NCBI GenBank assembly: GCA_963799885.1
Contig: CAWCYX010000010.1
Span: forward strand, 110,520-174,519
Length of the DNA stretch: 64,000 bases
Direction: 5' to 3'
Source of the DNA: an uncultured Gammaproteobacteria bacterium
GTDB taxonomy: Bacteria; Pseudomonadota; Gammaproteobacteria; Steroidobacterales; Steroidobacteraceae
Shown: piece by piece, positions 4,261 to 61,562 of the stretch
How positions within the stretch are numbered: position 1 is the stretch's first letter
How the letters are laid out: each line of letters starts with the position of its first letter
The notes under the pieces: generated by a model
Databases searched by the model: none
Told to the model about the DNA's origin: nothing
The model's input: the letters and a program-made list of their open reading frames with translations, nothing else
Position numbers and translations under genes: made by a program

Positions 4261-5462
4261 GCGAAGGCTCCAGCGCTAGGCTCAATCAAGGCAACCGCCA
4301 GGCGTCTCGCGGCGGCGTCGGCTGCGAACACGTCCTCCAGAGCCTTGACGGAGGACGAATCGAGGCGCTGCAATACCTTGTCAATGACCGTCGCAATGCC
4401 GGTAAAGTTCAAGCGGCGGTCAAGAAACGCCTGCACGGCAACCTCGTTGGCGGCATTGAGCACCGCCGGCGCGGTGCCGCCGGCACGCGCCGCCGCTCTC
4501 GCTAAGTCAAGGCTGGGGAAGCGCACATGGTCCGGCGGTTCGAAGTCGAGCCGCCCCACGATGCTCATGTCGAGCGATTGTACACCGGAAACAACACGCT
4601 CCGGCCACGCCAAGGCCTGAGCGATCGGCGTGCGCATGTCGGGCGCCCCGAGCTGCGCCAGCAGCGAGCCATCGGCGTATTCCACCAGCGAGTGCACCAG
4701 ACTTTGCGGATGCACGACCACCGAGACCTGCGACTCGGGCAAGCCGAACAACAGCGTCGCTTCGATGACTTCGAGCCCCTTGTTCATGAGCGTCGCCGAA
4801 TCGACCGATATTTTGCGGCCCATTTTCCACTTCGGGATGATTGCAGGCCTCGTCCGGAGTCACGTGCGGCAAGCAGCGCACAGTTCCGTGACGCGAAACG
4901 GGCCGCCCGACGCGGTCAGGATCACACGCGTCACGCCGCGCGCCGCATCGCCCGGCAGATAGCCCCCCGGCATGCATTGGAAAATCGCGTTGTGCTCGCT
5001 GTCGATGGGAATGATTTCGGTGCCGGCGCGGTGCACCTCATCCATCAGCAAGCTGACCCGACATCACCAGGGATTCTTTGTTGGCGAGCAGCACCCGCTT
5101 GGCGGCACGCACCGCGGCGAGCGTCGGCAAGAGCCCGGCGGCGCCGACGATCGCGGCCATGACCATCTGCACGTTCTCCCCGGTCACGGCGACGGCTGAG
5201 CGCTTCGAGACCGGACTCGACCCGCGTCTTCGATCCGAAACGCTCGAGTGCCGCCCGCGCCTCGCCGGCGGCCTTCGGATCGACCAGCACGACGACATCG
5301 GGCTCGAAGCGCAGCGCCTGTTCGACGACCGTCTGCCAGCTGCCGTAGGCCCCCAGCATCGCCACGCGAAAGCGGTCCGGATGCAGGCCGATGACCGCAA
5401 GCGTGCTGCGCCCGATGCTGCCGGTGGAGCCCAGAATGGCGATGCCGCGGATGGTCGCTCAT
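4257..5462 (-). CDS. dxr: 1-deoxy-D-xylulose-5-phosphate reductoisomerase, reading frame broken at least four times as sequenced
   Basis: Dxr peptides are all present but spread over three reverse frames. They are: [26 protein letters not shown] (own translation, about 5440-5370); [27 protein letters not shown] (ORF 5045-5365); [38 protein letters not shown] (ORF 5038-5400); [17 protein letters not shown]...[12 protein letters not shown] (ORF 4860-5051); [11 protein letters not shown] (ORF 4507-4977); [22 protein letters not shown]... (ORF 4257-4823). Confidence 0.85.
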
Positions 5463-7618: not shown

Positions 7619-8366
<748 letters not shown>

Positions 8367-8443
8367 GGTCGGGTACCCTACTATAAAAGACCCCGCGTGC
8401 GCGGGGTCCCTAACTCATCTTAATGGGTGCATGTAATTGAGTC

Positions 8444-9373
8444 TCAGTGTTTCTTGGGGCCGCCGTCGTCCGGACCCTTGTTGCTGTCCTTGTCCTGGGC
8501 CTTGACCTGATCCATGACATCTTTGACGAAATCATCCTGTTTCTTTTCGATGCCTTCACCCACTTCATAGCGGACGAACTTCACGACTTTGGCGCCGGCC
8601 TTCTTCACCAACTTCTCCACCGTCGTATCGGGATCCTTGACGAACGGCTGGCCCATGAGGGTAATTTCGGCCAGGTACTTGCGCAAACGGCCCTCCACCA
8701 TCTTGGCGATGATATCGGGGGGTTTCTTCTCCCCCTTCGTCTGCTCGGTGAGGATCTCACGCTCCTTGTCGAGCACCGCCGCAGGTACCTCGCTCGCGTC
8801 GATGTACGCCGGCTTTACGGCGGCCACATGCATGGCCAGATCGCGCGCCAATGCTTCATCCCCGCCCTCGAGGGTCACCAGGCTGCCGATACGGCTGCCG
8901 TGGACGTAGGTGCCGAGGGCTCCCGGGGCGCTGACCTTGACGAAACGGCGCACCGAAATGTTCTCGCCGATCTTGGCGATCAACGCCCGGCGCTGGCCCT
9001 CAAAACTGCCGGCAGCATTCGACGCGGCCAGCAATGCGTCGAGAGTGGCGGGAGAGTTCGCCAAGGCGGTCTTGGCAAGATCTCGCGCGAATGCCTGGAA
9101 CTCATCGCTGCGCGCAACGAAATCGGTCTCGCAATTGACTTCCACGAGCGCCGCGCTGTTACCGCTGCGCTCGGCAGCGACGGTGCCTTCCGCCGCGACC
9201 CGCGCCGCCTTCTTGTCGGCCTTGGCGAGCCCGGTCTTGCGCATGAGTTCGGCGGCGGCGTCCAGATCACCCTTGGTTTCGACCAGAGCCTTCTTGCACT
9301 CCATCATGCCGGCGCCGGTGCGCTCGCGCAGTTGTTTGACTGTATCTGCGGTAATATTCATGGTGTTCAACAC
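8444..9373 (-). CDS. tsf: Translation elongation factor Ts
   Basis: N-terminus [41 protein letters not shown] is the EF-Ts UBA-like domain. The track start is a GTG; ATG 9361 (MNITAD) is equally possible. Confidence 0.93.
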
Positions 9374-14155: not shown

Positions 14156-14983
14156 TTGTACAGCAATCTACGCGCGACCATCGAGGCCGCCTATGAACGG
14201 CGGACGCAAATCACGCCGCAGTCCACCACGCCCGAGGTGGGCAACGCGGTCGAGACCGCCGTCGAACTGCTCGACGCAGGAACGTTGCGGGTCGCCGAGC
14301 GGCGAGGCGCCGTGTGGACTGTCCATGAGTGGCTGAAGAAGGCGGTGTTGCTGTCCTTCCGGATCGCCTCGAACGTTCCGCAGTCGGCCGGCGCCCTTTC
14401 GTTCTATGACAAGGTGCCGCTCAAATACACCGGCTGGGACGAACCGCGGTTCGCAGCGGCCGGCGTGCGCGTCGTGCCGCCGGCCACGGTGCGGCGCGGC
14501 GCATATGTCGCGCCCAATGTGGTGCTGATGCCCAGCTACGTGAATATTGGCGCGTATGTCGACTCGGGCAGCATGGTCGATACGTGGGCCACCGTCGGCT
14601 CCTGCGCGCAGATCGGCAAGAACGTGCACTTGTCCGGCGGAGTCGGCATCGGCGGCGTCCTGGAGCCGCTACAGGCCAGTCCCACCATCATCGAGGACGA
14701 CTGCTTCATCGGCGCCCGCTCCGAGATCGTCGAGGGCGTAATCGTCGAGACGGGCGCCGTGATTTCCATGGGGGTGTTCATCGGCCAGAGCACCCGCATC
14801 TACGATCGGGAGCGCGATGAGATCCTCTACGGCCGGGTACCGGCCGGCGCGGTCGTGGTACCCGGCACGTTGCCGGCGGCCAACGGGAAATACGGCCTGG
14901 CGTGCGCCGTGATCGTCAAGCGTGTGGACGCACAGACGCGGGCTAAAACATCGCTGAACGAGTTGCTGCGGAACACCGACTAA
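14156..14983 (+). CDS. dapD: Tetrahydrodipicolinate N-succinyltransferase
   Basis: 275 aa. Left-handed beta-helix hexapeptide region [64 protein letters not shown]. Synteny with glnD supports the call. Confidence 0.9.
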
Positions 14984-15114: not shown

Positions 15115-15626
15115 ATGCGTAATCGGCCACCGTTGCTTTGCATTGCCGCAAGCCTTGCCGCTCTCGGTCTGGGTATTTCGGGAATTTCCGACACGCGTGC
15201 AGCGGCTACCCGCAACATGGGGGATGGCGCCGTCCCGATGGGTACTTCGGCCGCGGTTGGAATCGGGGCGGCTGGGGCGCATTGGGGTACGGACTCTATT
15301 TCTCGGCGCTGCCTTGGAATTGCGACCTCTACTACTGGGGTGGGGTGCCCTACTACTACGCGGACGACACATACTACGAATGGAATGGGACCGCCGGTGC
15401 GTACGAGTCTGTCCGCCCGCCTCCTGGCCGTGCCGACCAGGTTGCGGCTCAAGAGCCAGTCGTGACGGAGCTGTTCGTATTTCCAAATGACGGCCAGACG
15501 AACGAGCAGATGGACCGCGATCGAACAGAATGCCATCAATGGGCTGCAGAGGTCCGTCCGTTTGGTCAGGTCTCATGGCCGCGAACCGGCCATGAGACTC
15601 CTGAACTGGTCGGATGCATCGATTAG
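15115..15626 (+). pseudogene. Degraded copy 1 of the secreted Gly/Tyr-rich protein family (frame change, C-terminal module missing)
   Basis: The signal peptide MRNRPPLLCIAASLAALGLGISG (ATG 15115) is in the frame of ORF 15010-15465. The family core GYFGRGWNRGGWGALGYGLYFSALPW...GGVPYYYADDTYYEWNG...YESVRPPP...LFVFPNDGQTNEQMDRDRTECHQWAAE is in the frame of ORF 15138-15626. After ECHQWAAE no frame encodes the ACL(E/D)GRxYSV end found in copies 2 and 3. Confidence 0.55.
15570..15598. terminator. 12-bp-stem hairpin between convergent genes (candidate porin terminator, no U-tract)
   Basis: GTCTCATGGCCG-cgaac-CGGCCATGAGAC read directly. It starts 25 nt after the porin stop on the minus strand. No T-run follows on either strand, so it is not a canonical intrinsic terminator. 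Confidence 0.3.
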
Positions 15627-17086
15627 AAGGAGAACCGCGCGCCGATGGTCGGATCGATCATGGTCGTGTTCAGGTACCCGTTGGCGAGGCCATGCGACAC
15701 GTTCGACCACATGGCGCCTGCGTAGGCGTCGAAGCGCTTGGTGAAGCGATAGTCGACCGACACGGATACCGCGTTGAAGTTTCCGCTGCACGTGCCATGG
15801 GCGTTGCTCGAGCAGCCTGCCTCGGCGCCGGTCGCGTAGGCGAATTGCTTTTCTCCGTAATAGGCAATTGCGGCGGTGAACTGCGGTGTCACCGAATACC
15901 GGGCGCCCGCCCAATAGACGTTCAGCTGCTTATCGGCCTTGGCATAGGCGGTATTGTTCACCGCTCCCAGGGTGTATCCGCCGATATCATCGAATCCCGC
16001 AACCAATGGGATCGAGGGATTCATGTAAGTGATGTGCTGGAAGCCGCCATACAGAGTCACCGGAACCACGGGGAGCACCGGAGCGAGCGCGTAGGAAGCC
16101 ATGACTCCATAAGAGGCATTGTCCGAGATCGTGCCCGAGACCGAGTTCTGCGAAGAGAGGTTCAACGCCGGCAAGTCCGCCAGCTGCGCGGTGCTCAAGG
16201 TACCCACCGAGACTGCATCGCGCATCTTGGTGTAGAACGCATCGACGGAGGCACCCGCGTACTCCCCACCCAGCGATACCTCGAACCCGGAGAAGGCCTC
16301 GCCGGTGCCGGCGGTCGGATAGTTCTGCGCGGATGAGTTCTGGGTTTTAGCCTGCGCGCCGACGTGCACCATGCCGAGGAAGTTGCCGACGTACTTGATC
16401 GAGCTGTCGAGGCGGCGGTCCTGCGTATCGCCACCTCCGGCCGGAGTCCCGGACAAGCCGAGCAGCGAGAAAGCATAGGAGGTCTGCTGCGGATCGTATT
16501 TGGCTATGAGGTCCGCGAGCGTCGTATTCTGGCGGCCGAATGTGATCGTTCCCCAGGTGGGAGAGCTGAAACCGACGAACGCTTGTTCGAACGGCTGGCC
16601 GGCGATGCTCGAATCGATGTTCGTGCTCTGCGCAGAGAGCGCGCGGCCGTTGTTCTGAGTAACCGATTTGAGGGCGTCGGTGATCTGGCCCGACGCCGGA
16701 TTGAAATAGGTCTCGAGCTTGAACACGGCCGACCAATCCATGAAGTGCAGCGGCTCCTTGCCCTGCAGCCCAACTCGCGACTGGCTCATGCCGTTCGAGG
16801 TGAAGCCGGACACGGCATTGTTGCTGTTCTTCTGCACTATGTCCGAGCCGCCCGAAATGAAGTAGTTGCTGAACGGCGCGCCGTGGGTTTCATACTGGAA
16901 ATCCATGTCGATGATGCCGTAGAGGGTGATGCCGTGCCAGGTCAGGCTTTCGTCCGCCGGTGCCGACGAGCTGGCCGTCGTGGTCTGCGCCTGCGCGGCG
17001 CTTCCCACCGTCAGCAGGGCACAGGCCAGCAGGCTGCCTCCCAGATGCGCAAGATCGCGACGACCGCGGCTCTGATCAAGCTTCAT
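15623..17086 (-). CDS. Outer-membrane porin (Gram-negative general porin family), unusually long
   Basis: Track ORF is 15623-17215. The likely start is ATG 17086 (MKLDQSRGRRDLAHLGGSLLACALLTVGSAAQA, a signal peptide). It has the ITLYGIIDMDFQY first strand, alternating beta-strand pattern and a terminal ...TIGARFSF. Confidence 0.75.
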   Translation of the reverse strand: MKLDQSRGRRDLAHLGGSLLACALLTVGSAAQAQTTTASSSAPADESLTWHGITLYGIIDMDFQYETHGAPFSNYFISGGSDIVQKNSNNAVSGFTSNGMSQSRVGLQGKEPLHFMDWSAVFKLETYFNPASGQITDALKSVTQNNGRALSAQSTNIDSSIAGQPFEQAFVGFSSPTWGTITFGRQNTTLADLIAKYDPQQTSYAFSLLGLSGTPAGGGDTQDRRLDSSIKYVGNFLGMVHVGAQAKTQNSSAQNYPTAGTGEAFSGFEVSLGGEYAGASVDAFYTKMRDAVSVGTLSTAQLADLPALNLSSQNSVSGTISDNASYGVMASYALAPVLPVVPVTLYGGFQHITYMNPSIPLVAGFDDIGGYTLGAVNNTAYAKADKQLNVYWAGARYSVTPQFTAAIAYYGEKQFAYATGAEAGCSSNAHGTCSGNFNAVSVSVDYRFTKRFDAYAGAMWSNVSHGLANGYLNTTMIDPTIGARFSF

Positions 17087-17599
17087 CGCAGTGGCGATGA
17101 TCGAGTTGAAATTTCTCACGTTGAACTCCATCAGTTTTAATACGGTTGTTGCATTAGGGCTACAAGTAAATAGTTGCCAGCTATTCGACCGACACCATTT
17201 TTGATTGGATCGCATCTCGCGGCGCCGTTGGTGGCTTCGAGAGCTCCAGCCATCTAGATTCGTTCGTCCTTGATTGGTTCTGGGCGGATAAAGACTTTAT
17301 CTTTTTCGTGCTTCGTTGCGTTTTCGCCCACGTTGCTTATGAGGGCATCCCCCTATGATTCACCTCGAATATTACAGCTATATGACACGAAATACCATTC
17401 TTGCCACAAAAGACCAGCCATGGAAGTCCGGATATTCCGGCTGCGGGCGGGCAGGGCTGCAGACGCCGTCACCCTGCGCGAAATCGCCGCACTAAAGCCG
17501 GTGTGCCCAATGGGTGGCCATTCGCGAACTGCCATGCATGGCGTGTTTACGACAACTGTGAGCTTGGGGCAAACTTCGCCAGTCGATCGGCGCGAGCGA

Positions 17600-25020: not shown

Positions 25021-25666
25021 TTAACGTGGAGGCCGTGACCAGCCCAAGGTACGCTCACACAACTGCAATCGTGCGGTTTCCGACGGGCTCATCGTGATGT
25101 CGGATGGTGCGATGCACCAACCGGCGCCTTGACCAACCCATTCCACGGCGTCATTACGTCCGACACCCGTAGGCTATCGTGCGGGCGCGTCGCCGATGCT
25201 CATCTGTCAGCGCGAGTTCTTCGGGCGTATCAAGATCCGTCAGTGCTGTGAAGGAATGATCGGTGTGCTCGGCCTCCCGGCGGTTGGACGCCAAAACGCT
25301 CGCGTTGCGCGCGCCAAGCGACAACATGGTCTTCGCAGAATTGATGGCAACGCGATGAAGCCAGGAATAGAAAGCCGACTCGCCGCGAAAGTTCTGCAAC
25401 CCCCAATAAGCATTGATGAAGGTAATCTGGACCACATCCTCCGCGTCGTCGCGATTGCCCATGTAGCGCATCGAAAGCTTCATCACCCGCTGCCGATATT
25501 TGCGTACCAGTGCATTAAATGCGCCGTGCTCACCTGACTGAGCGCGCACCACGAGCATTTGGTCGCAAGGCGCCGCATCCGCACTCAGATCCAAGTCCGC
25601 TGAGTGGCGCGGTAGCCTCCCGTGTTTTGACTCATTCCTCTCGGAGATGGATTCCGGATACATCAT
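25021..25666 (-). CDS. RpoE/AlgU-like ECF sigma factor, sigma-4 region out of frame as sequenced
   Basis: ORF 25154-25666 has sigma-2, LVVRAQSGEHGAFNALVRKYRQRVMKLSMRYMGNRDDAEDVVQITFINAYWGLQNFRGESAFYSWLHRVAINSAKTML, closely resembling E. coli RpoE as I remember it. It stops at ...TIAYGCRT. In another frame, 25165-25021 reads PTGVGRNDAVEWVGQGAGWCIAPSDITMSPSETARLQLCERTL, a divergent sigma-4.2 HTH pattern. This implies one indel near 25167. Confidence 0.65.
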
Positions 25667-25701
25667 GTCGACGGTTATGTTGGGGCCGTTAGATTAGAAT
25701 T

Positions 25702-25748
25702 GCCATAAGATCACATTAGAAAATGCGGACCGAGCTCACACTAACCGC
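25702..25748. repeat. Left arm of an imperfect inverted repeat flanking the two-component operon
   Basis: gccataagatcaCATTAGAAAATGCGGaccgagctcacactaaccgc. The 15-bp core at 25714-25728 is the exact reverse complement of 28246-28260. By hand alignment the arms match at 36 of 47 columns. Confidence 0.6.
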
Positions 25749-25912
25749 TGATCGAGGGAGTGCGGGCGCGGCTACTCACCTTTTCGGCGTCAATTCCGGC
25801 GCCCGCCCCGCACTGTCAATTGCTCGCGGGGCGTCGACCGCGCACTCGCTACCTTGCGCTTGGCAATTGCGCGAGCACCGAGGGAACACGGCATGAGAGC
25901 AACTTAATGATG

Positions 25913-25931
25913 TTCTAACGGTCTTCTAATG
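25913..25931 (+). promoter_or_regulatory. TTCTAA-N5-TTCTAATG direct repeat upstream of the OmpR-family regulator (candidate autoregulatory site)
   Basis: The hexamers start at 25913 and 25924, an 11-bp period. They lie 36 nt upstream of GTG 25967, which has AGGAG at 25957-25961. The 8-mer TTCTAATG is shared with the inverted-repeat cores. Confidence 0.35.
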
Positions 25932-25966: not shown

Positions 25967-26665
25967 GTGCGAATACTGATTGTCGAAGATGATCGTAAAC
26001 TAGCGGAATTCGTCGCTCGCGGGCTACGCGCGGAGCGATTCGCTGTCGACCTCGCGGGCAATGGTCGAGAAGGCGAGACCTATGTCAACTCCTACGAATA
26101 CGATCTACTCGTACTTGATTTGATGCTTCCGCAATTGAGCGGCACCGAACTGTTGCGGCGGGTGCGCCAGTCCCATTCCTCGTTGCCGGTCCTCGTCCTT
26201 ACTGCGCGCGACGCGATCGATGACAAAGTGATGCATTTCGAGGCGGGTGCCGACGATTACCTGACCAAGCCTTTCGACTTCGCCGAGTTGTTAGTGCGTA
26301 TCAAGGCCCTCCTGCGCCGCTCACCCGCCGAGCGGGTCGATGTCTTACGCATCGCGGATCTCGAACTCAACCGGGTCACCCAGCAAGTCAGGCGCAATGG
26401 CCATCGGATTGATCTAACCGCAAAGGAATATGCATTGTTCGAATATTTGTTGTGTTCGCCCGGCCGGGTATTTTCGAGGACCATGATACTCAATCATGTA
26501 TGGGATCAGAGCTTCGAGGGAGTGACCAACATTGTGGATGTGTACGTCCGGTACCTGCGCAGAAAGGTCGACGAGCCGTTTCCAATCAAGCTCATTCACA
26601 CCGTGCGTGGAGTGGGCTATTGTGTGCGCGACGCGGAACTCGAGCGCCATGCTGCACTGGAATGA
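25967..26665 (+). CDS. OmpR-family response regulator, CusR/CopR-like
   Basis: MRILIVEDDRKLAEFVARGL...DLLVLDLMLP...VLVLTARDAIDDKVMHFEAGADDYLTKPFDFAELLVRIKALLRR...LTAKEYALFEYLL...TNIVDVYVRYLRRKVDEPFPIKLIHTVRGVGY. The pattern matches heavy-metal regulators of the CusR/CopR type as I recall them. Confidence 0.9.
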   Translation: MRILIVEDDRKLAEFVARGLRAERFAVDLAGNGREGETYVNSYEYDLLVLDLMLPQLSGTELLRRVRQSHSSLPVLVLTARDAIDDKVMHFEAGADDYLTKPFDFAELLVRIKALLRRSPAERVDVLRIADLELNRVTQQVRRNGHRIDLTAKEYALFEYLLCSPGRVFSRTMILNHVWDQSFEGVTNIVDVYVRYLRRKVDEPFPIKLIHTVRGVGYCVRDAELERHAALE

Positions 26666-28206
26666 ATCATCGATCGCTCGCATTTCGGTTGGGCGCGTGG
26701 TACACGCTGCTCTTGAGCGCGACATTTGCACTCGTCGGCACGGCTACTTTCTACGGCCTGCAACATTACCTACGCTCGAATTTGCGCGATTCCGTGAGCC
26801 GGCGGTCAACTCAGGTCGAGGAAATACTTCTCCAGGCACCTGCCGACGCTAGCAATGGTGCGATTGGCAGGGAAATCGAGACTCGGGTCGCGCCGGAATT
26901 CAACAATCGCTTCGTACGCGTGACCCGTGCGCCGGCGACAATGATTTATCGTTCCGGTCCACCCGTCGATCGAAGCTTCGATCCGGCGTTGGTGAGGGCG
27001 GTTCGACATGCGGACGCCACCAACATCGGGTCGCCCGTTACGGCGATCGTGGGAGATCAGCATCTCATGATTCGCGCGACACCTGTGAGCACGCGATCCG
27101 GCACGTATCTCGTCGAGCTCGGTGTCTCGATAGATCCCATCGACGCGGTGCTAAACCGCCTGCTTGATCTTCTCGCCGTACTACTCCCTGTGCTTATGGT
27201 CTGCGCGGCGGGGGGCGGCTACTGGCTCGTGAATTGGGCGCTACGCCCCGTCGATCGACTTTCACAAACCGCCGAACAAATGAGTTTACAGAATTTGACA
27301 CTACGGCTTCCGGTCGTGCCGAGCGGCGATGCCCTGGAGCGCCTATCGATCTCCCTCAACACCATGCTAGGACGCTTGCGCGACTCCGTACAGACATCGC
27401 GGCGCTTTCTAGCGGATGCATCCCACGAACTTCGAACGCCACTGACGGTAATTAAAGGCGAACTTCAGGAACTGGCCGGTGAATCCCCATTGACCAAACG
27501 GGACCTGCGCGAACGGGTCGGCAGCGTACTCGAAGAAGTGGCACGCCTGGAGCACTTGGTGTTCGGATTACTCGTTCTGTCGCGCCTCGACGCCGGCGAG
27601 CCTCAGGTCGATTGGGCCGACGTCGACCTCGCGGAACTGGCGTCGAGCACCGCCGATCAGATGCGTCTGATGGCGGACGATCGCGGTATTGAGATCGAGT
27701 TCTCCGCGCTGCGAAAAGCGCTGGTCCGCGGGGATCGGGCACGGCTGAAGCAGATCGTGGTCAACCTTCTCGACAATGCGATCCGTTTTACCAAACGAGG
27801 AGGGACCGTATGGCTGCGCACCGCAATGGACGATGCGGGCAGCGTCCTCGAGGTCTCTGATACCGGGGTTGGTATTCCAGCGGACTCGATATCCCATGTA
27901 TTTGATCGGTTCTATCGTGTAGCTGAGGCCCGCTCGCGCGAGGACGGCGGGGCGGGCCTTGGATTGTCAATTGTGAAATCGATTTGCTCGGCGCATGGCG
28001 CAGAAATCGAGGTTGAGAGCCGGGTGGATGCCGGTAGCTGCTTCCGAGTGAGCTTCCCGCTCGCCCGGCGATCCAGCGTCGCAACCGCTAGCGATGCACC
28101 CCGCACGCTCCATTCCAATACGTCATCGGGTCGAGAGTGCCCGAGCAACACGCTGGTCCCGATTGAAGTTTCGGCAAACCCGCAGGAGATGACCCTGAAA
28201 AGGTGA
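26662..28206 (+). CDS. Sensor histidine kinase (HisKA/HATPase), CusS/CopS-like
   Basis: Start ATG 26662 overlaps the regulator stop (ATGA). Two TM segments flank a periplasmic region of about 150 aa. It has a HAMP domain, the H-box FLADASHELRTPLTVIKGEL, the N-box NLLDNAIRFT and the G-boxes DTGVGIP / GGAGLGLSIV. Confidence 0.88.
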   Translation: MNHRSLAFRLGAWYTLLLSATFALVGTATFYGLQHYLRSNLRDSVSRRSTQVEEILLQAPADASNGAIGREIETRVAPEFNNRFVRVTRAPATMIYRSGPPVDRSFDPALVRAVRHADATNIGSPVTAIVGDQHLMIRATPVSTRSGTYLVELGVSIDPIDAVLNRLLDLLAVLLPVLMVCAAGGGYWLVNWALRPVDRLSQTAEQMSLQNLTLRLPVVPSGDALERLSISLNTMLGRLRDSVQTSRRFLADASHELRTPLTVIKGELQELAGESPLTKRDLRERVGSVLEEVARLEHLVFGLLVLSRLDAGEPQVDWADVDLAELASSTADQMRLMADDRGIEIEFSALRKALVRGDRARLKQIVVNLLDNAIRFTKRGGTVWLRTAMDDAGSVLEVSDTGVGIPADSISHVFDRFYRVAEARSREDGGAGLGLSIVKSICSAHGAEIEVESRVDAGSCFRVSFPLARRSSVATASDAPRTLHSNTSSGRECPSNTLVPIEVSANPQEMTLKR

Positions 28207-28294: not shown

Positions 28295-29056
28295 CTAGTT
28301 CACACTGTAGTTGCGACCTTCAAGACATGCGCCATCGGCGCGCAGAAACTCACCACGCTGCGCGGCTGTAATATTCTTCGTCGCGGGAGTCGCCACCGGT
28401 GGGGTCGCTCCGGCTGTGCCGGGCGTCGCAACGGCGGTGGTGAGTGACGATGGGTCTGCCGCTGGATTTGGATCGACGCCGGACTGTGCAGCGGCCCAGC
28501 GATGGCACTCCGCATGATCCTGCGCTTGTTGTTCGTTCGACTGCCCCGCCTTGGGATACACAAACAGCTGATTCACGACCGGCTGCTGAGTCTTCACCTC
28601 ATCGGCGAGTCCGGCCGGCGGTCGGACGGTTTCGTATTCGCCCACATCACCATTCCATGTGTAGTAAACATCGTCGGCGTAGTAGTAGGGGACGCCGTCC
28701 CATAGATAGGTGTCGTAGTACCAGGGAAGGGCGCCGAAAAAGAGACCATACCCCAAACCTCCGTAGAATCCTCCGCCATACCAACCGCGACCGTAGCCGC
28801 GTCCATACCAGCCCCGACCATAGCCGTGCCCATAGCCGTAGCTTCCCGGTCCATGCCAGCCGCCACGGTAGCCGCCCCCGCGAAATCCGCCGCCACCATG
28901 AAAACCACCGCCGCCATGGAAGCCGCCGCCGCCATGGAAGCCGCCGCCTCCGTGGCCACCGCTGCCCCCTGAATGTGCTACTGCCGATCCAGAAATGCCT
29001 AAGCCGACGGCGGCGAGAGCGCCGACGATCGAAAGCAGTCGTCGTTGGGTACGCAT
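28295..29056 (-). CDS. Secreted Gly/His/Tyr-rich protein, family copy 2
   Basis: 253 aa. Signal peptide MRTQRRLLSIVGALAAVGLGISGSAVA, then GGGGFH x4, GYGRGWYG repeats, GLGYGLFFGALPWYYDTYLWDGVPYYYADDVYYTWNG, VYPKAGQSNEQQAQDHAECHRWAAAQSGVDP, and the C-terminal ADGACLEGRNYSVN. Confidence 0.8.
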   Translation of the reverse strand: MRTQRRLLSIVGALAAVGLGISGSAVAHSGGSGGHGGGGFHGGGGFHGGGGFHGGGGFRGGGYRGGWHGPGSYGYGHGYGRGWYGRGYGRGWYGGGFYGGLGYGLFFGALPWYYDTYLWDGVPYYYADDVYYTWNGDVGEYETVRPPAGLADEVKTQQPVVNQLFVYPKAGQSNEQQAQDHAECHRWAAAQSGVDPNPAADPSSLTTAVATPGTAGATPPVATPATKNITAAQRGEFLRADGACLEGRNYSVN

Positions 29057-29127: not shown

Positions 29128-29155
29128 TTAGATTGCCCTCGCCACTCCTAGTTCC
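29128..29155 (-). promoter_or_regulatory. SigmaE-type promoter candidate for Gly-rich copy 2
   Basis: The minus strand reads GGAACT-aggagtggcgagggcaa-TCTAA (17-nt spacer). It lies about 70 nt upstream of ATG 29056. Confidence 0.4.
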
Positions 29156-29220: not shown

Positions 29221-29272
29221 TTCTCTAATAGTTTGCTCGCCTGCTTTTAATCTCCAGGGAGTACGCTGCAGG
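29221..29272 (+). repeat. Copy A of a roughly 50-bp direct repeat (candidate promoter/operator module)
   Basis: ttctctaatagtttgCTCGCCTGCTTTTAATCTCcaggGAGTAcgCTGCagg. The 19-nt core at 29236-29254 differs at one base from 29660-29678. It ends about 150 nt before ATG 29403. Confidence 0.5.
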
Positions 29273-29402
29273 TGTGGATGCAACGATGACCATTCACCAT
29301 AACTGCAAACGCGGCGCCATGAGCAGGCACCCACGGCTGTCCGCGTCGACTCTTATCATCGGTTTGCGCGCTGTTCTTGATGGGTGTGTGAAGTGCGGGT
29401 TT

Positions 29403-29600
29403 ATGATTCGTGCGCTGGTGTGCGTCGTAGCTGTAACGGCCGGATGCTCGTACCTACGGGCGTCGTCGGATCCTTCTGCACCCAATCGGTGCTACGCTGA
29501 GTCAGGATGGCTTGACTCATCGAACGGCTGTTCCGTGAGGGCGGGGTACCCAGATTGCTATTTGGTCTGTCCGGATAAAGGGACGCGACGACGTTTGTAG
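29403..29600 (+). CDS. Small Cys-rich putative lipoprotein (65 aa)
   Basis: Internal ATG of ORF 29274-29600. MIRALVCVVAVTAGC (lipobox-like) is followed by SYLRASSDPSAPNRCYAESGWLDSSNGCSVRAGYPDCYLVCPDKGTRRRL, which has six Cys in the mature part. The SD is weak, so it is hypothetical. Confidence 0.4.
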   Translation: MIRALVCVVAVTAGCSYLRASSDPSAPNRCYAESGWLDSSNGCSVRAGYPDCYLVCPDKGTRRRL

Positions 29601-29644: not shown

Positions 29645-29699
29645 GTTTTTAATGTATCTCTCGCCTGCCTTTAATCTCGACCGAGTATCTGGCTGCCGG
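29645..29699 (+). repeat. Copy B of the roughly 50-bp direct repeat
   Basis: gtttttaatgtatctCTCGCCTGCCTTTAATCTCgaccGAGTAtctggCTGCcgg. It ends about 135-155 nt before ATG 29833. Confidence 0.5.
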
Positions 29700-37890: not shown

Positions 37891-39861
37891 ATGGCCTCAA
37901 CAACGTGCGATGACCGGCTGTCGAGTCGCCCCGCCGCAATCATGCGATCATTTGCGTATGGCGAAAGGGCGTTATATCGAAGCGGATTCGGTCACCGGTC
38001 CGTCAACACGATGACCGTTGACCCACGCCGTAGCTTGGTCGCCGGCCTCATTTGGCTCGTCGTCGCCATGGCTTTGAGTTTCGCCGGCGCGGCGTCGTTT
38101 TGGGCCGGCCGCGCGGCACGCGAAATCGTCGTCCAGCAGCACGTGCGCAGATTGCTTCTCGAGACGGATCAATTTGCCTCGGACTTGGGTCAGGCGGTGA
38201 GTGCTCGGATGGCGGCCGCACGCACGGTGCGCGCCGCGACGTCCCTTGAGCGGACGTTCACAGCCCTCCTCCAGCAATATCCGGATCAGGGGTGGATCGC
38301 TCTGGCGGACGACACCGGGACAGTGATCGCCGGCGACGGAAGCATCCCTGTGGGTGCGAACGTCAGCGCAGCGCCCTGGTTCTCGAGCGGACGCGAACGG
38401 CCATGGATCGGGATCATCGAAGCAGACGACCGCCTGAGGAGCGACCGTTCTCCGCGGCTCGGCGACCTGTCGCTGCCTGTCCAAGATGCTGCCGGGCATA
38501 CCCTCGGGGTGATCGCTGCGCATATCACCTGGCGCTGGGCCACGCGAGACTTACTGCGGCTGAGTGCCGGCCTCGAACCGTCCGCTCAAACGCTGATACT
38601 TGACGACCAAGACCGCGTAATGGTCGGCCCGAAGGACTGGCTCAATCTGCGATGGCAAGGCACTCCCACCACCGATCCGCAGCCAATCGACACCGCCGCG
38701 GCGCTGCCGGCAGCGCATGAACCCGCCGGCGCCAAGGTTCAGGTTCCCCAGTTCGAGCGCTTGCCGAGCGGCCGAACCGTTCTGGTGGCGCGTTCACCGG
38801 TGATCGTCGAACCTGACGGAGCGGCGCACGGCTGGCAAGTTCAGCTCAGCGAGCCCAAGGAACACGTTTATCAGCGCGCCAACGCCCTAGCTGAGCGCAT
38901 CCTTTGGATCTCGGTATGTCTGGGCGCGGTCACGGCGCTGATCGGCGCGCTCGTCGCCCGGCATTTGACGAATCGACTACGTCGATTGACTCGCTCTGCC
39001 GCCTTAGTGGGCCGTAACGAAATCGAACGCATCGAGGTGCCGGCCGGGCGGGACGAGGTCGCGCAGCTTGCCGGCGCATTCGCCAAGGTGCTCGATGACC
39101 TGCGCCGGGAGCGCAGCGAGCTGCTGGCGTTGAGCGGCGAACTCGAACGCCGCGTCGCCGTCAGGACGCGCGAAGTGGTGCGCCTTGCGGAGGAATCTCG
39201 ATATGCGGCCGTCGTTCGGGAACGCCTGAAAATTGCGCGGGACCTTCACGATACGCTCGCGCACTCGATGATGGCGATGTTGAGCGAGGTGCGATTGCTC
39301 CGCAAACTCCACGCGCACGACCCATCCGCGCTCGCGGACGAATTGGCCCGCGCCGAAGAAGTTGCGCACGATGGGCTCAATGAGGCACGCACGGCCGTAG
39401 CGCAAATGCGCTTCAATGCCGTGCGCGACACCGGCCTGGGTCCCGCGCTTGCAAAGACCTACGACCGCTTCATCGATCGTACGGGCTTGATCGGAGAATT
39501 CACTTCCGATGCCGAAGCCGCCCGCTTCGGGGACGAGCGCGCCGAAACCTTGTTCAGCATGGCCGAAGAGGCGCTGCGGAACGTCGAACGGCACGCGATG
39601 GCCAGCCGGGTGAGGGTCATGCTCGCGATGAAAAACGATACCCACCTGTGCCTGCGGATCGAGGACGACGGGATCGGCTTCGATACCGGCCATTCCCGGC
39701 CCGGACATTTCGGGCTGGTCGGGCTGCGCGAGCAGGCGCAGTTGATCGACGCGGACTTGCACATTCGAAGTGCGCCGAACCAAGGGACGACCCTCTCGGT
39801 AACGTTGCGAATCGCACCTGAAGTTCTCTCGCCGCTCGATGCCGCGGCACATTCGACGTAA
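37891..39861 (+). CDS. Orphan HisKA_3 (NarX/DesK-type) sensor kinase with a large periplasmic domain
   Basis: The start is uncertain (ATG 37891, 37942 or 38011; none has a clear SD). TM LVAGLIWLVVAMALSFAGAASFW, a periplasmic region of about 300 aa and a second TM ILWISVCLGAVTALIGALV. It has a HAMP domain, the H-box ARDLHDTLAHSMMAM, the N-box EEALRNVERHA and the G-boxes EDDGIGFD / GHFGLVGLREQ. No regulator is adjacent. Confidence 0.85.
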   Translation: MASTTCDDRLSSRPAAIMRSFAYGERALYRSGFGHRSVNTMTVDPRRSLVAGLIWLVVAMALSFAGAASFWAGRAAREIVVQQHVRRLLLETDQFASDLGQAVSARMAAARTVRAATSLERTFTALLQQYPDQGWIALADDTGTVIAGDGSIPVGANVSAAPWFSSGRERPWIGIIEADDRLRSDRSPRLGDLSLPVQDAAGHTLGVIAAHITWRWATRDLLRLSAGLEPSAQTLILDDQDRVMVGPKDWLNLRWQGTPTTDPQPIDTAAALPAAHEPAGAKVQVPQFERLPSGRTVLVARSPVIVEPDGAAHGWQVQLSEPKEHVYQRANALAERILWISVCLGAVTALIGALVARHLTNRLRRLTRSAALVGRNEIERIEVPAGRDEVAQLAGAFAKVLDDLRRERSELLALSGELERRVAVRTREVVRLAEESRYAAVVRERLKIARDLHDTLAHSMMAMLSEVRLLRKLHAHDPSALADELARAEEVAHDGLNEARTAVAQMRFNAVRDTGLGPALAKTYDRFIDRTGLIGEFTSDAEAARFGDERAETLFSMAEEALRNVERHAMASRVRVMLAMKNDTHLCLRIEDDGIGFDTGHSRPGHFGLVGLREQAQLIDADLHIRSAPNQGTTLSVTLRIAPEVLSPLDAAAHST

Positions 39862-39881: not shown

Positions 39882-40421
39882 TTGAAGATGCAACGCAAAC
39901 GGATTCTCTTACTGGTGACGATCGCAATCGCGGCGGCCGGCGCTACGCGCGCATTCGCAGACGATCCGTGCCTCGGATTCAAGTGGGACGTTCGCAAGGA
40001 GCACGCCTTGTTCGGCGGCACCCCCGCGGCGCTCCCCGCCGGGAAGGATGTGCCCTCCGCGCCGACGATCGTCGCCGGCCGCCTGTATGCACTGCAGCTC
40101 GCACCGCAGACCGCCGTTTCGTTCGCCGTGGCGCCCGGCAAGAAGAGTGCGCCCGACGGCTCATATGCGGGCCTCGCCGTCCTGCACCTCGAGACCGCGG
40201 GCCACTACCGCGTCTCGGTGGACGCACCTGTGTGGATCGACGTTGCCGCGGACGGAACCCTCGCGGAGGTCGAGGACTATCAAGGGCTGCACAGTTGCGA
40301 CGCTCCGCATAAGATCGTCGAGTTCAAGCTCGCGAGCGGCTCGCGTTTCGTCCTGCAGTTGAGCGGAGCGCCGAAGGCGGCGATCCGGTTGACCGTGACG
40401 CAGGCCCCTCCGAAGACTTAG
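39882..40421 (+). CDS. Exported protein of unknown function (179 aa)
   Basis: GGAGA lies 8 nt before the ATG. Signal peptide MKMQRKRILLLVTIAIAAAGATRAFA. The mature part is beta-rich with two Cys (DDPC, HSCDAPH). It starts 20 nt after the kinase stop, so co-transcription is likely. Confidence 0.6.
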   Translation: MKMQRKRILLLVTIAIAAAGATRAFADDPCLGFKWDVRKEHALFGGTPAALPAGKDVPSAPTIVAGRLYALQLAPQTAVSFAVAPGKKSAPDGSYAGLAVLHLETAGHYRVSVDAPVWIDVAADGTLAEVEDYQGLHSCDAPHKIVEFKLASGSRFVLQLSGAPKAAIRLTVTQAPPKT

Positions 40422-40531: not shown

Positions 40532-40559
40532 GGAACTGCCTCGCCATTGCGGGGTCAAA
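40532..40559 (+). promoter_or_regulatory. SigmaE-type promoter candidate for Gly-rich copy 3
   Basis: GGAACT-gcctcgccattgcgggg-TCAAA (17-nt spacer), about 45 nt upstream of ATG 40606. It follows an 8-bp GC hairpin at 40490-40513. Confidence 0.4.
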
Positions 40560-40605: not shown

Positions 40606-41274
40606 ATGAAAAATCAACGCCCCGTCCGGTCGAATATCGTGGTGATCTGTCTGGCTGCCCTCCTGCTGAGCAGCGGTACCGCACTCGCTCAGGGTCACGC
40701 CGGCGGCGGTGGGCACGCGGCGGTGGGTCACGGCGGTTACGGCGGCGGCTACCGTGGCGGTTACGGCGGCGGGTATCGCGGCGGTTATGGATACCGTGGC
40801 GGCTACGGCTGGCGCGGCGGCTACGGCTGGCGCGGCGGCTACGGCTGGGGCGGCTGGGGTTGGGGTTGGGCAGGACTTGGGCTCGGTCTCTACTTCGCAA
40901 CGCTGCCGCTCTATTACTCCACGCTCTGGTGGGACGGCACTCCCTATTACTACGCGGATGGCACGTACTACCTGTACGATGGCCGGGTTCGTCAATACGT
41001 CACCGTGGCGCCGCCGCCCGAAATACAGAGTCAAGTCGGTGCGCAGGGCGGTGAACAAGAACCGATCGGCACGGACCTCATCGCCTACCCGAAGAACGGC
41101 CAGAGCGCCGACCAGCAGGCGAAGGACAAATACGAGTGCCACCATTGGGCAGCCGCACAAAGCGGCTTCGATCCCACCCTGGGTGCGGCCGCGCCGGCGC
41201 GCGCCTCCAAACGTACCGACTACATGCGGGCACAGGCCGCCTGCCTCGATGGGCGAGGCTACAGCGTCAAATAG
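40606..41274 (+). CDS. Secreted Gly/Tyr/Trp-rich protein, family copy 3
   Basis: 222 aa. Signal peptide ...[15 protein letters not shown], then GGYRGGYG / GGYGWR repeats, [68 protein letters not shown], and the C-terminal [14 protein letters not shown]. Confidence 0.8.
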
Positions 41275-42401
41275 GAGCCAACAACAGTTCGAGCGTTCGG
41301 AAATAGATCTGATGCAGACGGTCGATATCGTCGACGCGCACGCACTCGTTGACCTTGTGAATGGTTTCGTTGATGACGCCGAGTTCGATGACTTGCGCAC
41401 CCATGGGCGCGATGAACCGGCCATCCGAAGTCCCGCCGCCGGTCGATAGCTTCGGGGTGACCGCGAGCAATTCTTGAACGGCCTGCGTGGCGGCGTTCGA
41501 CAGTCTGCCGGGCGCAGTCAGAAAGGGGTGGCCGGATACGAACCATTCCAACGTATAGTTGACTCGATGCTTGGCTAAGATGCCTTCGACGGTTGCTTTG
41601 AGTTTTTCGATGGTCTGCTCCGTCGAGAACCGCAAGTTGAAGCGCGCTTTGAGCTCGCCGGGAATGACGTTGGGCGCGCCCGTGCCGGCGGAGATGTTCG
41701 ATACCTGGAACGTCGTCGGCTGAAAATGCTCATTGCCCCCGTCCCAAACATACGACGTCAGATCCGCAAGCGCCGGCGCCAGCGCGTGGACGGGATTGTC
41801 GGCAAACTGCGGATAGGCTATATGGCCCTGCACACCGTGAACCGTGAGCCGCCCGCTCAGGCTGCCGCGTCGGCCGATTTTGATCGTGTCGCCGAGTAAT
41901 TTCTCGCTCGACGGCTCCCCGACCAGGCACCAATCGATGGTCTCCCGGCGCTCGCGGAGCACCTCCACCACCCGGCGCGTCCCGTCGACCGAGGGCCCTT
42001 CCTCATCGCTGGTGATGAGAAACGCGATGGTGCCCAGGTGCTTTGGGTAGCGGCGCACGAACTCTTCACTGGCGGTCAGCATGGCGGCAAGTCCGCTCTT
42101 CATATCGGCGGCGCCGCGGCCGTACAGCATGCCCTCCTCGATCACGGGCACGAAAGGGTCGGTCCGCCAGTCTTCGCGAGGACCGGTCGGCACCACATCG
42201 GTGTGCCCGGCGAAACAGAGCACGGGGCCGCCCTCGCCGCGCTTCGCCCAAAAATTGTCGACCGGCCCGAAGCGCAGCCTTTCCGACCTCGAACCCGATG
42301 AGCTCGAGCCGCTCGATCATCACCGCCTGACATCCGCCGTCCGTGGGACTGACGGAGGCGCGCGCTATCAGCTCCCGGGTCAGTTCGAGTGTCTTCGACA
42401 T
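41267..42401 (-). CDS. dapE: Succinyl-diaminopimelate desuccinylase, one frame change as sequenced
   Basis: [39 protein letters not shown] (frame of ORF 42066-42530) continues as [39 protein letters not shown]... (ORF 41267-42223). The join requires removing one base of a CC pair near 42283. Confidence 0.88.
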
Positions 42402-61036: not shown

Positions 61037-61397
61037 CGGAACCTTACTCGGCCCAATGATGATTCCGGCCGGCAGCAGTAATGCGGTCCGGCGCCCACCG
61101 CGCCGGACCGCACCCGGTCTCAAGCAGACCGTCTCCACACTAAAGGCGTCGACAAAGCACTTCCGAGACGCGAAGCTTCTTTGTGAACTTGGCTAGGATA
61201 AACCGTCGCTCGGTTGCCGCAACGCCGCTATACGCCGACGTCGTGAGAGAAGTAGCCTACGTGATTTTTCCGGAGCCCGGCGTAGGCCGATTCCCACGCA
61301 CAGTAGAGCGTCGTCAATGTGGCGTTGGTTGCGTCGCGGAAGTACTTTGCCACGGGGTACTCGAGGACTCGCTGACTTACGTTGCAAGGGGGATTTC

Positions 61398-61562
61398 ATG
61401 CTTCATTACGCCGTCGTCTTTCTCATCATTGCTCTCATCGCCGCCGTGTTCGGTTTTGGGGGAATCGCGGTGGGCGCTGCCGGGATCGCCAAAATCCTGT
61501 TCGTGATCTTCTTGATCGGTGCCGTCGTCTCATTCCTGATGCACGGCCGCAGCCGCGTCTGA
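61398..61562 (+). CDS. DUF1328/UPF0391 small membrane protein
   Basis: ATG 61398 has AGGGGGA upstream. [54 protein letters not shown] is the typical YtjA-like sequence. Confidence 0.7.

Follow-up and report, generated by a model that had tools for sequence, protein, structure and literature searches.

Three related open reading frames (ORFs) for exported Gly-rich proteins are present in the window, the whole stretch of 64,000 nucleotides analysed here from contig CAWCYX010000010.1 of an uncultured member of the Steroidobacteraceae. They were all found where the initial annotation had placed them and are designated c1, c2, and c3. Searching the window by tblastn with the conserved part revealed exactly three copies, and pairwise alignments confirmed that they share one architecture. 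Over the C-terminal 148 amino acids (aa), c1 and c2 are 44% identical (E=2e-35), and c2 shows 64% identity over 90 aa (E=2e-42) to the c3 frame at 15138-15626. Thus defined, c1 and c2 are intact paralogues, and c3 is a frameshifted, C-terminally truncated pseudogene. The copies and their parts are as follows.

40606-41274 (+): c1, intact paralogue of 222 aa (ORF list, paralogy, alignment, AlphaFold2 (AF2) model)
40606-40689 (+): c1 residues 1-28, predicted signal peptide
40690-40872 (+): c1 residues 29-89, disordered Gly/His/Arg/Tyr/Trp region, predicted mature N-terminus QGH
40873-41019 (+): c1 residues 90-138, aromatic beta-meander
41074-41271 (+): c1 residues 157-222, two-Cys module with Cys178 and Cys213
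28295-29056 (-): c2, intact paralogue of 253 aa (ORF, paralogy, alignment, AF2 model)
28976-29056 (-): c2 residues 1-27, signal peptide
28760-28975 (-): c2 residues 28-99, disordered region, predicted mature N-terminal His, HGGGGF repeats
28613-28759 (-): c2 residues 100-148, beta-meander
28298-28570 (-): c2 residues 163-253, two-Cys module with Cys184 and Cys244
15115-15626 (+): c3, pseudogene; signal peptide frame from the ATG at 15115, body in the frame of ORF 15138-15626

The third copy had been recognized as damaged before, and a frameshift and a lost C-terminus were indeed detected. The signal peptide of c3 is out of frame with the body, which is 81% identical to an intact orthologue of 236 aa (P0016). 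Most of the Gly region is deleted, as is everything beyond ECHQWAAE including the C-terminal helix and the second Cys. In the intact copies, the Gly region is covered by recent tandem repeats of the DNA, 18 bp repeated 4.3-4.7 times and 27 bp repeated 2.2 times in c2, and 18 bp repeated 3.2 times (97%) in c1. The shared motifs listed in the initial annotation are all present, and the GGYRGG/GGYGWR repeats it had assigned to the damaged copy belong to the ORF starting at 40606.

Both intact proteins consist of a Sec signal peptide, a disordered region of Gly/His/Arg/Tyr/Trp without acidic residues, an aromatic beta-meander, and a beta-alpha-loop-alpha-beta module containing two Cys. The signal peptides have the classical n/h/c organization and end with AxA, and both proteins are accordingly predicted to be exported, as had been assumed. 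The AF2 model of full-length c2 shows a signal peptide helix, residues 23-109 with a predicted local distance difference test (pLDDT) score below 50, and folded parts with scores of 77-96. These are four beta strands at 115-144, followed by a strand (166-168), two helices (174-192 and 231-247), and a final strand (250-252) at pLDDT of about 90. Residues from about 88 to 222 of c1, modelled with an alignment of 38 sequences, yielded a mean pLDDT of 81.8 and the same succession of four strands and beta-alpha-alpha-beta, the latter being the two-Cys module with scores of 86-97. Foldseek searches of the PDB with both models gave no match (best E about 1), and no PDB match for the c1/c2 family was obtained by sequence, either with single sequences or with a profile.

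In an alignment of 33 sequences, the residues G95, P111, W119, YYY124-126, Y131, Y141, and P147 are invariant in the first part and P168, Q172, Q176, D180, C184, W187, A188, R239, A240, C244, L245, Y250, and V252 in the second; the invariant motifs include PYYY, YP..Q...Q...D...C..WA, and RA..CL....Y.V. The folded part is far better conserved than the tail. The elements of the two-Cys module can be described as a strand (F/Y)P..GQ, a helix ..QQ..D...C..WA, a variable loop, a helix Y.RA..ACL, and a strand GR.Y.V; c1 and c2 contain all of them, and c3 lacks the second helix with its Cys. Across relatives the Cys pair is invariant or nearly so, which makes a disulfide between the two residues plausible.

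Relatives were searched with the conserved part of c2. A total of 237 proteins was obtained, the best being 65% identical, and all of them are annotated as hypothetical and without a precomputed Pfam domain. Scanning one genome per GTDB species revealed 477 confirmed stretches, and 79 loci were fetched from species-representative stretches. Most of these are titled Steroidobacteraceae or unclassified Gammaproteobacteria metagenome-assembled genomes (MAGs), several genomes contribute two or three loci, and soil, including peat, palsa, and bog sites, is the origin of many of them. The proteins therefore represent a multi-copy family of Steroidobacteraceae-like soil Gammaproteobacteria. By crude gene calls and clustering of the neighbourhoods of the 79 loci, three syntenic paralogue lineages were distinguished, A with c1, B, and C with c2.

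Full-length c1, c2, and c3 gave no usable match to Pfam (E<=1) or NCBIfam. A fragment of c1 matched positions 91-156 of DUF6515 (PF20125), a profile of 179 positions, with 16.8 bits (E=0.0063), below the gathering threshold of 24.9 bits, and a fragment of c2 did not match this profile. Two close relatives (P0144 and P0214) score above this threshold over positions 86-159, and the aromatic beta-meander corresponds to the second half of DUF6515. Moreover, WIK44233.1, a protein of 227 aa from Pseudomonas aeruginosa that reaches 55 bits with the DUF6515 model, shares 46% identity with c1 across 129 aa (E=2e-33). Because of this identity, the two relatives above the threshold, and the occurrence of DUF6515 in 58 of 142 representatives carrying the two-Cys module (see below), the family is homologous to DUF6515 proteins, of which it is a divergent relative. 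The statement that the proteins cannot be placed in a characterised family thus stands in so far as nothing experimentally characterised matches; a partial placement is possible beside DUF6515 and its P. aeruginosa member. A search of the literature on DUF6515 yielded nothing but an incidental repeat-typing paper, in which the length of the Gly run in a DUF6515 gene of Erwinia amylovora differs among strains.

The hydrophobic stretch (GLGYGLFFGALP) had been described as glycine-zipper-like. Its spacing is GxGxG, not the GxxxG of a zipper, it lies within the weak match to DUF6515, and c1, c2, and c3 do not match the glycine-zipper families PF13488, PF13441, and PF13436. The stretch GLGYGLFF..LP aligns with ..G..V..LP.. 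in front of the PYYY block of the DUF6515-positive proteins P0235 and P0355 and of the P. aeruginosa protein. A transmembrane or glycine-zipper segment was therefore rejected in favour of a part of the DUF6515-like block.

For the C-terminal two-Cys module alone, a profile (A2) was built, which detected 3,663 clusters at 50% identity with E<=1e-3 and 1,495 with E<=1e-10. Among the 142 top module-bearing representatives, 58 contain DUF6515 and 14 a Pfam glycine-zipper domain, which is located in the loop between the two Cys-bearing helices. On the lipoprotein P0209, the module occurs by itself. It has no match in Pfam-A. The conserved module postulated initially is consequently real and constitutes an autonomous, very widespread envelope domain. 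Its occurrence in Burkholderiales, mentioned in the initial annotation, was also verified: tblastn against annotated plasmid records identified Caballeronia and Burkholderia genes with a split module, several of them annotated as glycine zipper family protein, such as Caballeronia WP_248324294.1, in which a Gly zipper separates the two halves. At Caballeronia locus L081 (188-4486), a gene for a zipper and two-Cys protein is part of a same-strand cluster with genes for DUF3300, DUF2950, two hypothetical proteins, and an RT0821/Lpp0805 surface protein.

The tail between signal peptide and folded part consists, in 104 family members, of 50% Gly, 9% Tyr, 7.7% His, 7.2% Arg, 6.5% Trp, and 3.7% Phe, with virtually no Asp, Glu, or Lys and almost no Met. 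It is 24-91 residues long in this set and 24-117 across the family sets, and a His-Gly part precedes an Arg/aromatic-Gly part. Mature N-termini were placed by a crude AxA rule, not by SignalP; the residues following this site are conserved within lineages, the c2 lineage having H(S/G)GGGG..H, the other two lineages QHGGGGGH, and c1 QGH.

The strongest functional clue, which the initial annotation had missed, is provided by a stress-type promoter motif and response-regulator boxes shared by these genes. The promoter motif is of the extracytoplasmic function (ECF)/sigmaE type and reads (T/C)(G/T)GAACT-N16/17-GTC(T/A)(A/T)A, summarised as GGAACT-N16/17-GTCAAA. Within 150 bp upstream, its loose form was found for 46 of 75 family genes (61%) versus 16 of 866 other genes in the same loci (1.8%), and the strict form for 21 of 75 versus 8 of 866. 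It occurs in all three lineages with a spacer of 16-17 nt and at a median distance of 50 bp to the start codon. Hence, c1 and c2 carry their own sigmaE/ECF-type promoter motif, and their transcription would be expected to depend on stress. Scans for Sigma70 promoters and terminators around c1 and c2 yielded nothing above shuffled sequences.

40532-40559 (+): ECF/sigmaE-type promoter motif of c1, GGAACTGCCTCGCCATTGCGGGGTCAAA, ending 47 bp before the c1 ATG
29128-29155 (-): ECF/sigmaE-type promoter motif of c2, GGAACTAGGAGTGGCGAGGGCAATCTAA, 71 bp before the c2 ATG

The same motif is present at 4383-4410 (-) before rseP (2893-4260), which is located upstream of a gene labelled BamA-like by eye (393-2849), and at 61185-61210 (+) before 61317-61562, a gene for a small membrane protein of the PRK13682 family. 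In Escherichia coli, rseP is a classical gene of the sigmaE regulon. These two positions hint at a wider regulon.

The second element is an 11-bp-phased direct repeat, ATTARR-N16-ATTARR, often present as a triple repeat and resembling boxes of OmpR-type regulators. Four matches were detected in the window, with 0.02 expected, and two of them are contained in the intergenic region between a sigma factor gene and a response regulator gene close to c2.

29224-29251 (-): box ATTAAAAGCAGGCGAGCAAACTATTAGA, oriented like c2 and situated some 170 bp upstream of its ATG
29648-29675 (-): second, near-identical box ATTAAAGGCAGGCGAGAGATACATTAAA (pattern match)
25693-25720 (+): box ATTAGAATTGCCATAAGATCACATTAGA, at a distance of 27 bp to the RpoE-like sigma gene start
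25903-25930 (-): triple 11-bp-phased box ATTAGAAGACCGTTAGAACATCATTAAG, 37 bp before the response regulator start
25967-26665 and about 26665-28206 (+): response regulator and histidine kinase of a CusRS/CopRS-like two-component system, convergent with c2 (Pfam, NCBIfam)
25154-25666 (-): RpoE-like ECF sigma remnant with regions 2-3 only (TIGR02939 positions 5-130 of 190)

In 1.19 Mb of loci including the window, 57 box matches were found, confined to 22 sequences (21 loci and the window), most of which show the module of response regulator, histidine kinase, and RpoE-like sigma factor. Their positions are constant: the sigma start follows at about 27 bp and the regulator start at 25-40 bp, and the box upstream of the family gene has the same orientation as that gene; boxes of this class also precede c2-lineage genes in related loci. 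It appears, therefore, that c2 shares a candidate response-regulator box with a putatively autoregulated CusRS/CopRS-like operon and with the RpoE-like sigma gene. The CusRS-like nature of the system beside c2, already noted in the initial annotation, was supported by its best full-length NCBIfam matches, TIGR01386 with 267.8 bits (cut-off 292.6) and TIGR01387 with 249.3 bits (cut-off 279.2), both just under the cut-offs. In loci L002 (10908-10935) and L022 (11395-11422), the same class of box is located before a gene for a P-type cation ATPase with a Cation_ATPase_N domain. As this ATPase has no heavy-metal domain, the two-component system may sense cation or acid stress more broadly than copper. 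At about 29400-29600 (+), a small ORF for a Cys-rich putative lipoprotein starting with MIRALVCVVAVTAGC, with six Cys after the lipobox and no family match, is flanked by the two nearly identical boxes (ATTAAARGCAGGCGAG...) at 29224-29251 and 29648-29675.

Region 4 of the sigma gene in the window was absent from every frame when searched by tblastn with the intact orthologue from L028, and the gene is probably decayed. Its orthologues in related loci are full length, the one in L028 scoring 228 bits with RpoE (cut-off 236). Relative to L004 and similar loci, the window is rearranged, so that c2 is convergent with the kinase gene. In L004, L005, L010, L028, and similar loci, genes for response regulator, kinase, and RpoE-like sigma factor follow each other in that order on one strand, with the box about 27 bp before the sigma start and no anti-sigma gene noticed beside it. 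This arrangement suggests that the sigma factor could be under transcriptional control of the two-component system.

Envelope stress is also indicated by the homologue in P. aeruginosa. Its DUF6515 gene (8596-9279 of L080) is surrounded by fieF, a gene for an Lrp/AsnC regulator, hrpB, and amn, and we take it to be PA3964 from the gene order in strain PAO1. It is not located next to the cpx genes. A small RNA, P24 (Rfam RF00629, 261 bits), is encoded at 8175-8429 (+) of L080. RNA-seq data are available for the PAO1 cpxS T163P mutant, in which the Cpx envelope-stress response is locked on (PMC12802237, mBio 2025). In this mutant, a feature described as "PA3963a ... part of PA3964 disordered protein" shows a log2 fold change of 5.41, PA3963 rises by 2.54, and CpxR boxes, GTAAACGCCGGGTAAA and GTAAAGAATGGGTAAA, were assigned to PA3965 at -315 and -326 (PMC12802237). 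In L080 these boxes form a triple 11-bp-phased repeat at 8464-8492, 104-132 bp upstream of the start of the DUF6515 gene, with P24 between PA3965 and the boxes. The boxes are situated downstream of the P24 terminator and closer to the DUF6515 gene than to PA3965, which argues for this gene as a direct Cpx target. P24 as the 5' end of the DUF6515 gene was considered and rejected, since the small RNA has a terminator of its own and ends before the CpxR boxes are reached. Behind the designation PA3963a read-through there may be an error of strand or annotation concerning this Gly-rich gene.

The conservation of gene order around the family genes extends the adjacency to sensor genes, noted initially for the window, to relatives. 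The three lineages and further genes next to c1 are given below.

Lineage A (c1): gene for a HAMP-HisKA_3 kinase, then an exported protein of 180 aa, then the family gene, convergent with dapE-phoU-phoR; about 14 loci
Lineage B: gene for a MASE1-PAS-HisKA_3 kinase, then the family gene, then EF-G-like, Nramp-like, and MurJ-like genes; about 16 loci
Lineage C (c2): RpoE-like sigma, kinase, and OmpR-type regulator genes in one direction, with the family gene divergent from them; about 10 or more loci
37891-39861 (+): HAMP-HisKA_3 sensor kinase upstream of c1 (Pfam, NCBIfam; synteny in about 14 loci)
39882-40421 (+): exported protein of 179 aa between kinase and c1 (synteny in about 14 loci)

The labels EF-G-like, Nramp-like, and MurJ-like were assigned by eye from the sequence, without a scan of family libraries; the Nramp-like transporter gene lies two genes downstream of the family gene. 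The exported protein at 39882-40421 (+), containing DPC.G(F/Y)KWDV and retained between the HisKA_3 kinase and c1-type genes, has no match in Pfam, NCBIfam, or the PDB. Many family members have no kinase gene nearby. Kelch, racemase, LysRS, RF2, Na/Pi-PhoU, and subtilase genes in other neighbourhoods are housekeeping and uninformative, and a function was not deduced from them. A copper-efflux context of c2 was likewise rejected, as the neighbouring resistance-nodulation-division (RND) pump scores 508 bits with the multidrug type and 387 bits with CusA/CzcA. Just downstream of 14156-14983, read by eye as dapD, lies c3, and 41267-42223, read by eye as dapE, is convergent with c1; dap-adjacent arrangements recur in related loci (L032; lineage A), which may be a coincidence. 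The stop codon of 15623-17215 (-) abuts the truncated end of c3. The encoded protein of 530 aa ends with GARFSF, as outer-membrane beta-barrels typically do, and has no match in Pfam or NCBIfam, leaving the label porin given to it unverified.

Taken as a whole, these observations are best explained by envelope-stress effectors, an explanation to which we assign a probability of about 0.55 and within which the tail is proposed to bind cations or protons. According to this proposal, c1 and c2 would be Sec-exported envelope proteins made when the envelope is stressed, and c3 a dead copy. That the two are exported, stress-regulated envelope proteins is by itself highly probable. The disulfide-stapled C-terminal part would provide a stable, docking or dimerising body, and the N-terminal tail, about 50% Gly, nearly devoid of acidic residues, and rich in His first and in Arg/Tyr/Trp thereafter, would be the working part. 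After the predicted cleavage, it would open with a conserved H, QH, or QGH, followed by H-G4-5 repeats. In the periplasm, such a tail could serve as a cation- or proton-responsive binder, the likeliest role being the buffering of ions of the Cu(II)/Zn(II)/Ni(II) type in the manner of the SilE/PcoE sponges and of the HGGGW octarepeat of the prion protein. This role is proposed because the conserved N-terminal His and the H-G4-5 units resemble the prion HGGGW copper site, and because the c2 lineage has a CusRS-like partner and two other family genes are close to transporter genes, the cation diffusion facilitator (CDF) FieF beside the P. aeruginosa homologue and the Nramp-like protein in lineage B. 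As the specific activity of the His-Gly tail, metal or proton binding is advanced only tentatively.

Several points weigh against this explanation. The tail is not that of a typical metal sponge, having no Met or acidic ligands and no Cys; lineage B tails carry a median of only 3.5 His, and in the wider family length and composition vary as widely as those of a mere spacer would. The two-component system next to c2 remains below the heavy-metal cut-offs of NCBIfam, the sigma gene beside c2 is truncated and without region 4, the RND pump nearby looks multidrug-type rather than like CusA, the P-type ATPase behind another box has no heavy-metal domain, and most other family genes are surrounded by housekeeping genes. 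Promoters and boxes were assigned by motif, and the -10 element of c2 reads ATC instead of GTC. For P. aeruginosa, PA3964 was identified by gene order, and the induced feature was described as a read-through variant of PA3963 (PMC12802237).

Other functions of the tail have to be weighed against cation binding. A cationic Arg/Tyr/Trp/Gly tail could act as glue by binding lipopolysaccharide (LPS), peptidoglycan, exopolysaccharide, or phospholipid, or by self-association through cation-pi contacts, thereby reinforcing or patching a damaged envelope, and metals would be irrelevant. The sticker-spacer composition of 50% Gly, 9% Tyr, 7% Arg, and 6.5% Trp with almost no Asp, Glu, or Lys speaks for it, and so do the proposed regulation by envelope stress, the presence of the module on lipoproteins and beside Gly-zipper segments that associate with membranes, and the frequency of the family in MAGs of peat habitats such as palsa and bog. 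For polyanion binding, however, the conserved N-terminal His and the H-G4-5 periodicity would be superfluous, no peptidoglycan- or LPS-binding domain was found with Pfam and NCBIfam, and the tail composition differs strongly among more distant homologues, so that this function is regarded as rather doubtful. It is very improbable that the tail is just an entropic spacer or slippage-prone filler and that the DUF6515-like and two-Cys parts perform the entire function. A tail length of 24 to 117 residues, recent DNA tandem repeats, the strain-dependent Gly run in Erwinia amylovora, and the much better conservation of the folded part would fit, but the first mature residues H/QH/QGH and the order of His-rich before Arg/aromatic segments are kept across lineages, and the near-complete exclusion of acidic residues suggests selection on composition. 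A further-reaching and unlikely variant sees the tail as a periplasmic counterpart of eukaryotic low-complexity domains, in which a prion-octarepeat-like Cu(II)/proton sensor drives reversible self-assembly into a condensate or gel under envelope stress, anchored by the disulfide-stapled domain.

Two further alternatives assign the proteins a role toward other proteins. As disordered holdases or chaperones of a sigmaE regulon, they might capture outer-membrane proteins that are unfolded and rich in aromatic residues. Factors for folding outer-membrane proteins are overrepresented in sigmaE regulons, the sigmaE-like motif is common to family genes and the rseP gene in the window, and beta-meander and tail are highly aromatic; yet neither sequence nor fold resembles that of Skp, SurA, Spy, CpxP, or HdeA, and several paralogues per genome with lineage-specific regulation would be unusual for a core chaperone, which renders this role improbable. 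Even less credit is given to a CpxP-like signalling accessory that binds the neighbouring sensor kinase on its periplasmic side and tunes it. Each of the three lineages does adjoin a histidine kinase gene (HAMP-HisKA_3, MASE1-PAS-HisKA_3, CusS-like), and c2-type genes have remained next to the two-component system despite the rearrangement between the window and L004 and similar loci. On the other hand, the family genes have their own promoter motifs, the lineage B kinase shows no periplasmic sensor domain in its MASE1-PAS-HisKA_3 domain content, many members are not accompanied by a kinase, and the P. aeruginosa homologue is encoded away from cpx. A bacteriocin or antimicrobial peptide, for which the armadillidin-like GGGFH repeats were a cue, was rejected in view of vertically inherited, syntenic, multi-paralogue chromosomal genes encoding a conserved folded domain.

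By this analysis, an anonymous triplet of hypothetical proteins becomes a defined family with a testable role, a multi-copy envelope protein family apparently wired to stress and frequent among Gammaproteobacteria MAGs from soil and peat. It is linked to DUF6515 and to a strongly Cpx-induced locus of P. aeruginosa, where genetics is easy. The family is not categorically new, since relatives already go by the names DUF6515 and glycine zipper family protein and the P. aeruginosa homologue is already contained in the Cpx transcriptome. New are the sub-architecture combining half a DUF6515 domain with a long His/Gly-Arg/aromatic repeat tail, the regulatory wiring of the family genes, and the recognition of the two-Cys module as an envelope domain of wide occurrence (over 3,600 clusters at 50% identity) without a match in Pfam-A or, by sequence or Foldseek, in the PDB. 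If the His-Gly tail does bind metals or protons, it would be a new type of periplasmic buffer in envelope-stress responses; if it self-assembles, the proteins would be a stress-induced, phase-separating family of the periplasm. Independently of the family, it is noteworthy that a two-component system appears to control an RpoE-like sigma gene beside which no anti-sigma gene was noticed.

Compared with known systems, DUF6515 proteins such as WIK44233.1 are closest. They share with the window proteins a signal peptide followed by a Gly/Arg/His-rich disordered stretch, the block ..LP..Y....W..G.PYYY...YY.....Y..V.PP, and the C-terminal module YP..GQ..DQQ..D.YECH.WA ... Y.RA..ACL.GRGYSV, and in P. 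aeruginosa they also appear to be regulated by envelope stress, through the Cpx regulon as we read the published transcriptome (PMC12802237). In contrast, the window proteins have kept no more of the 179-position profile than its second half (about 86-159), score under the Pfam threshold, and have the first repeat replaced by a far longer Gly-rich repeat tail; their genes show ECF-type promoter motifs, whereas the P. aeruginosa gene has CpxR boxes. The glycine zipper family proteins of Burkholderiales (Caballeronia WP_248324294.1; metagenomic P0256, P0267, and P0275) are likewise exported and contain the same two-helix module with two Cys, ..YP.KGQS..QQ.KD...C..WA ... Y.RA..AC..GRGY.. They differ in that their inter-helix loop contains a genuine Gly zipper (Pfam Gly-zipper_OmpA, YMGG, or Omp), and they lack both the DUF6515-like block and the N-terminal Gly/His tail. 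CpxP and Spy, too, are exported proteins of small size under the transcriptional control of envelope-stress regulators, but no similarity to the window proteins was detected in sequence or fold. SilE and PcoE are disordered metal sponges of the periplasm, and the prion octarepeat is PHGGGWGQ. The window proteins resemble them by analogy, not homology, as exported, intrinsically disordered proteins with His-containing repeats, in which the HGGGGF unit is reminiscent of HGGGW, and as with SilE and PcoE, a two-component system of the CusRS/CopRS/SilRS type is located nearby. Unlike SilE and PcoE, to which neither sequence similarity nor a family match in Pfam or NCBIfam was found, they have no Met-rich motifs and possess a folded C-terminal domain.

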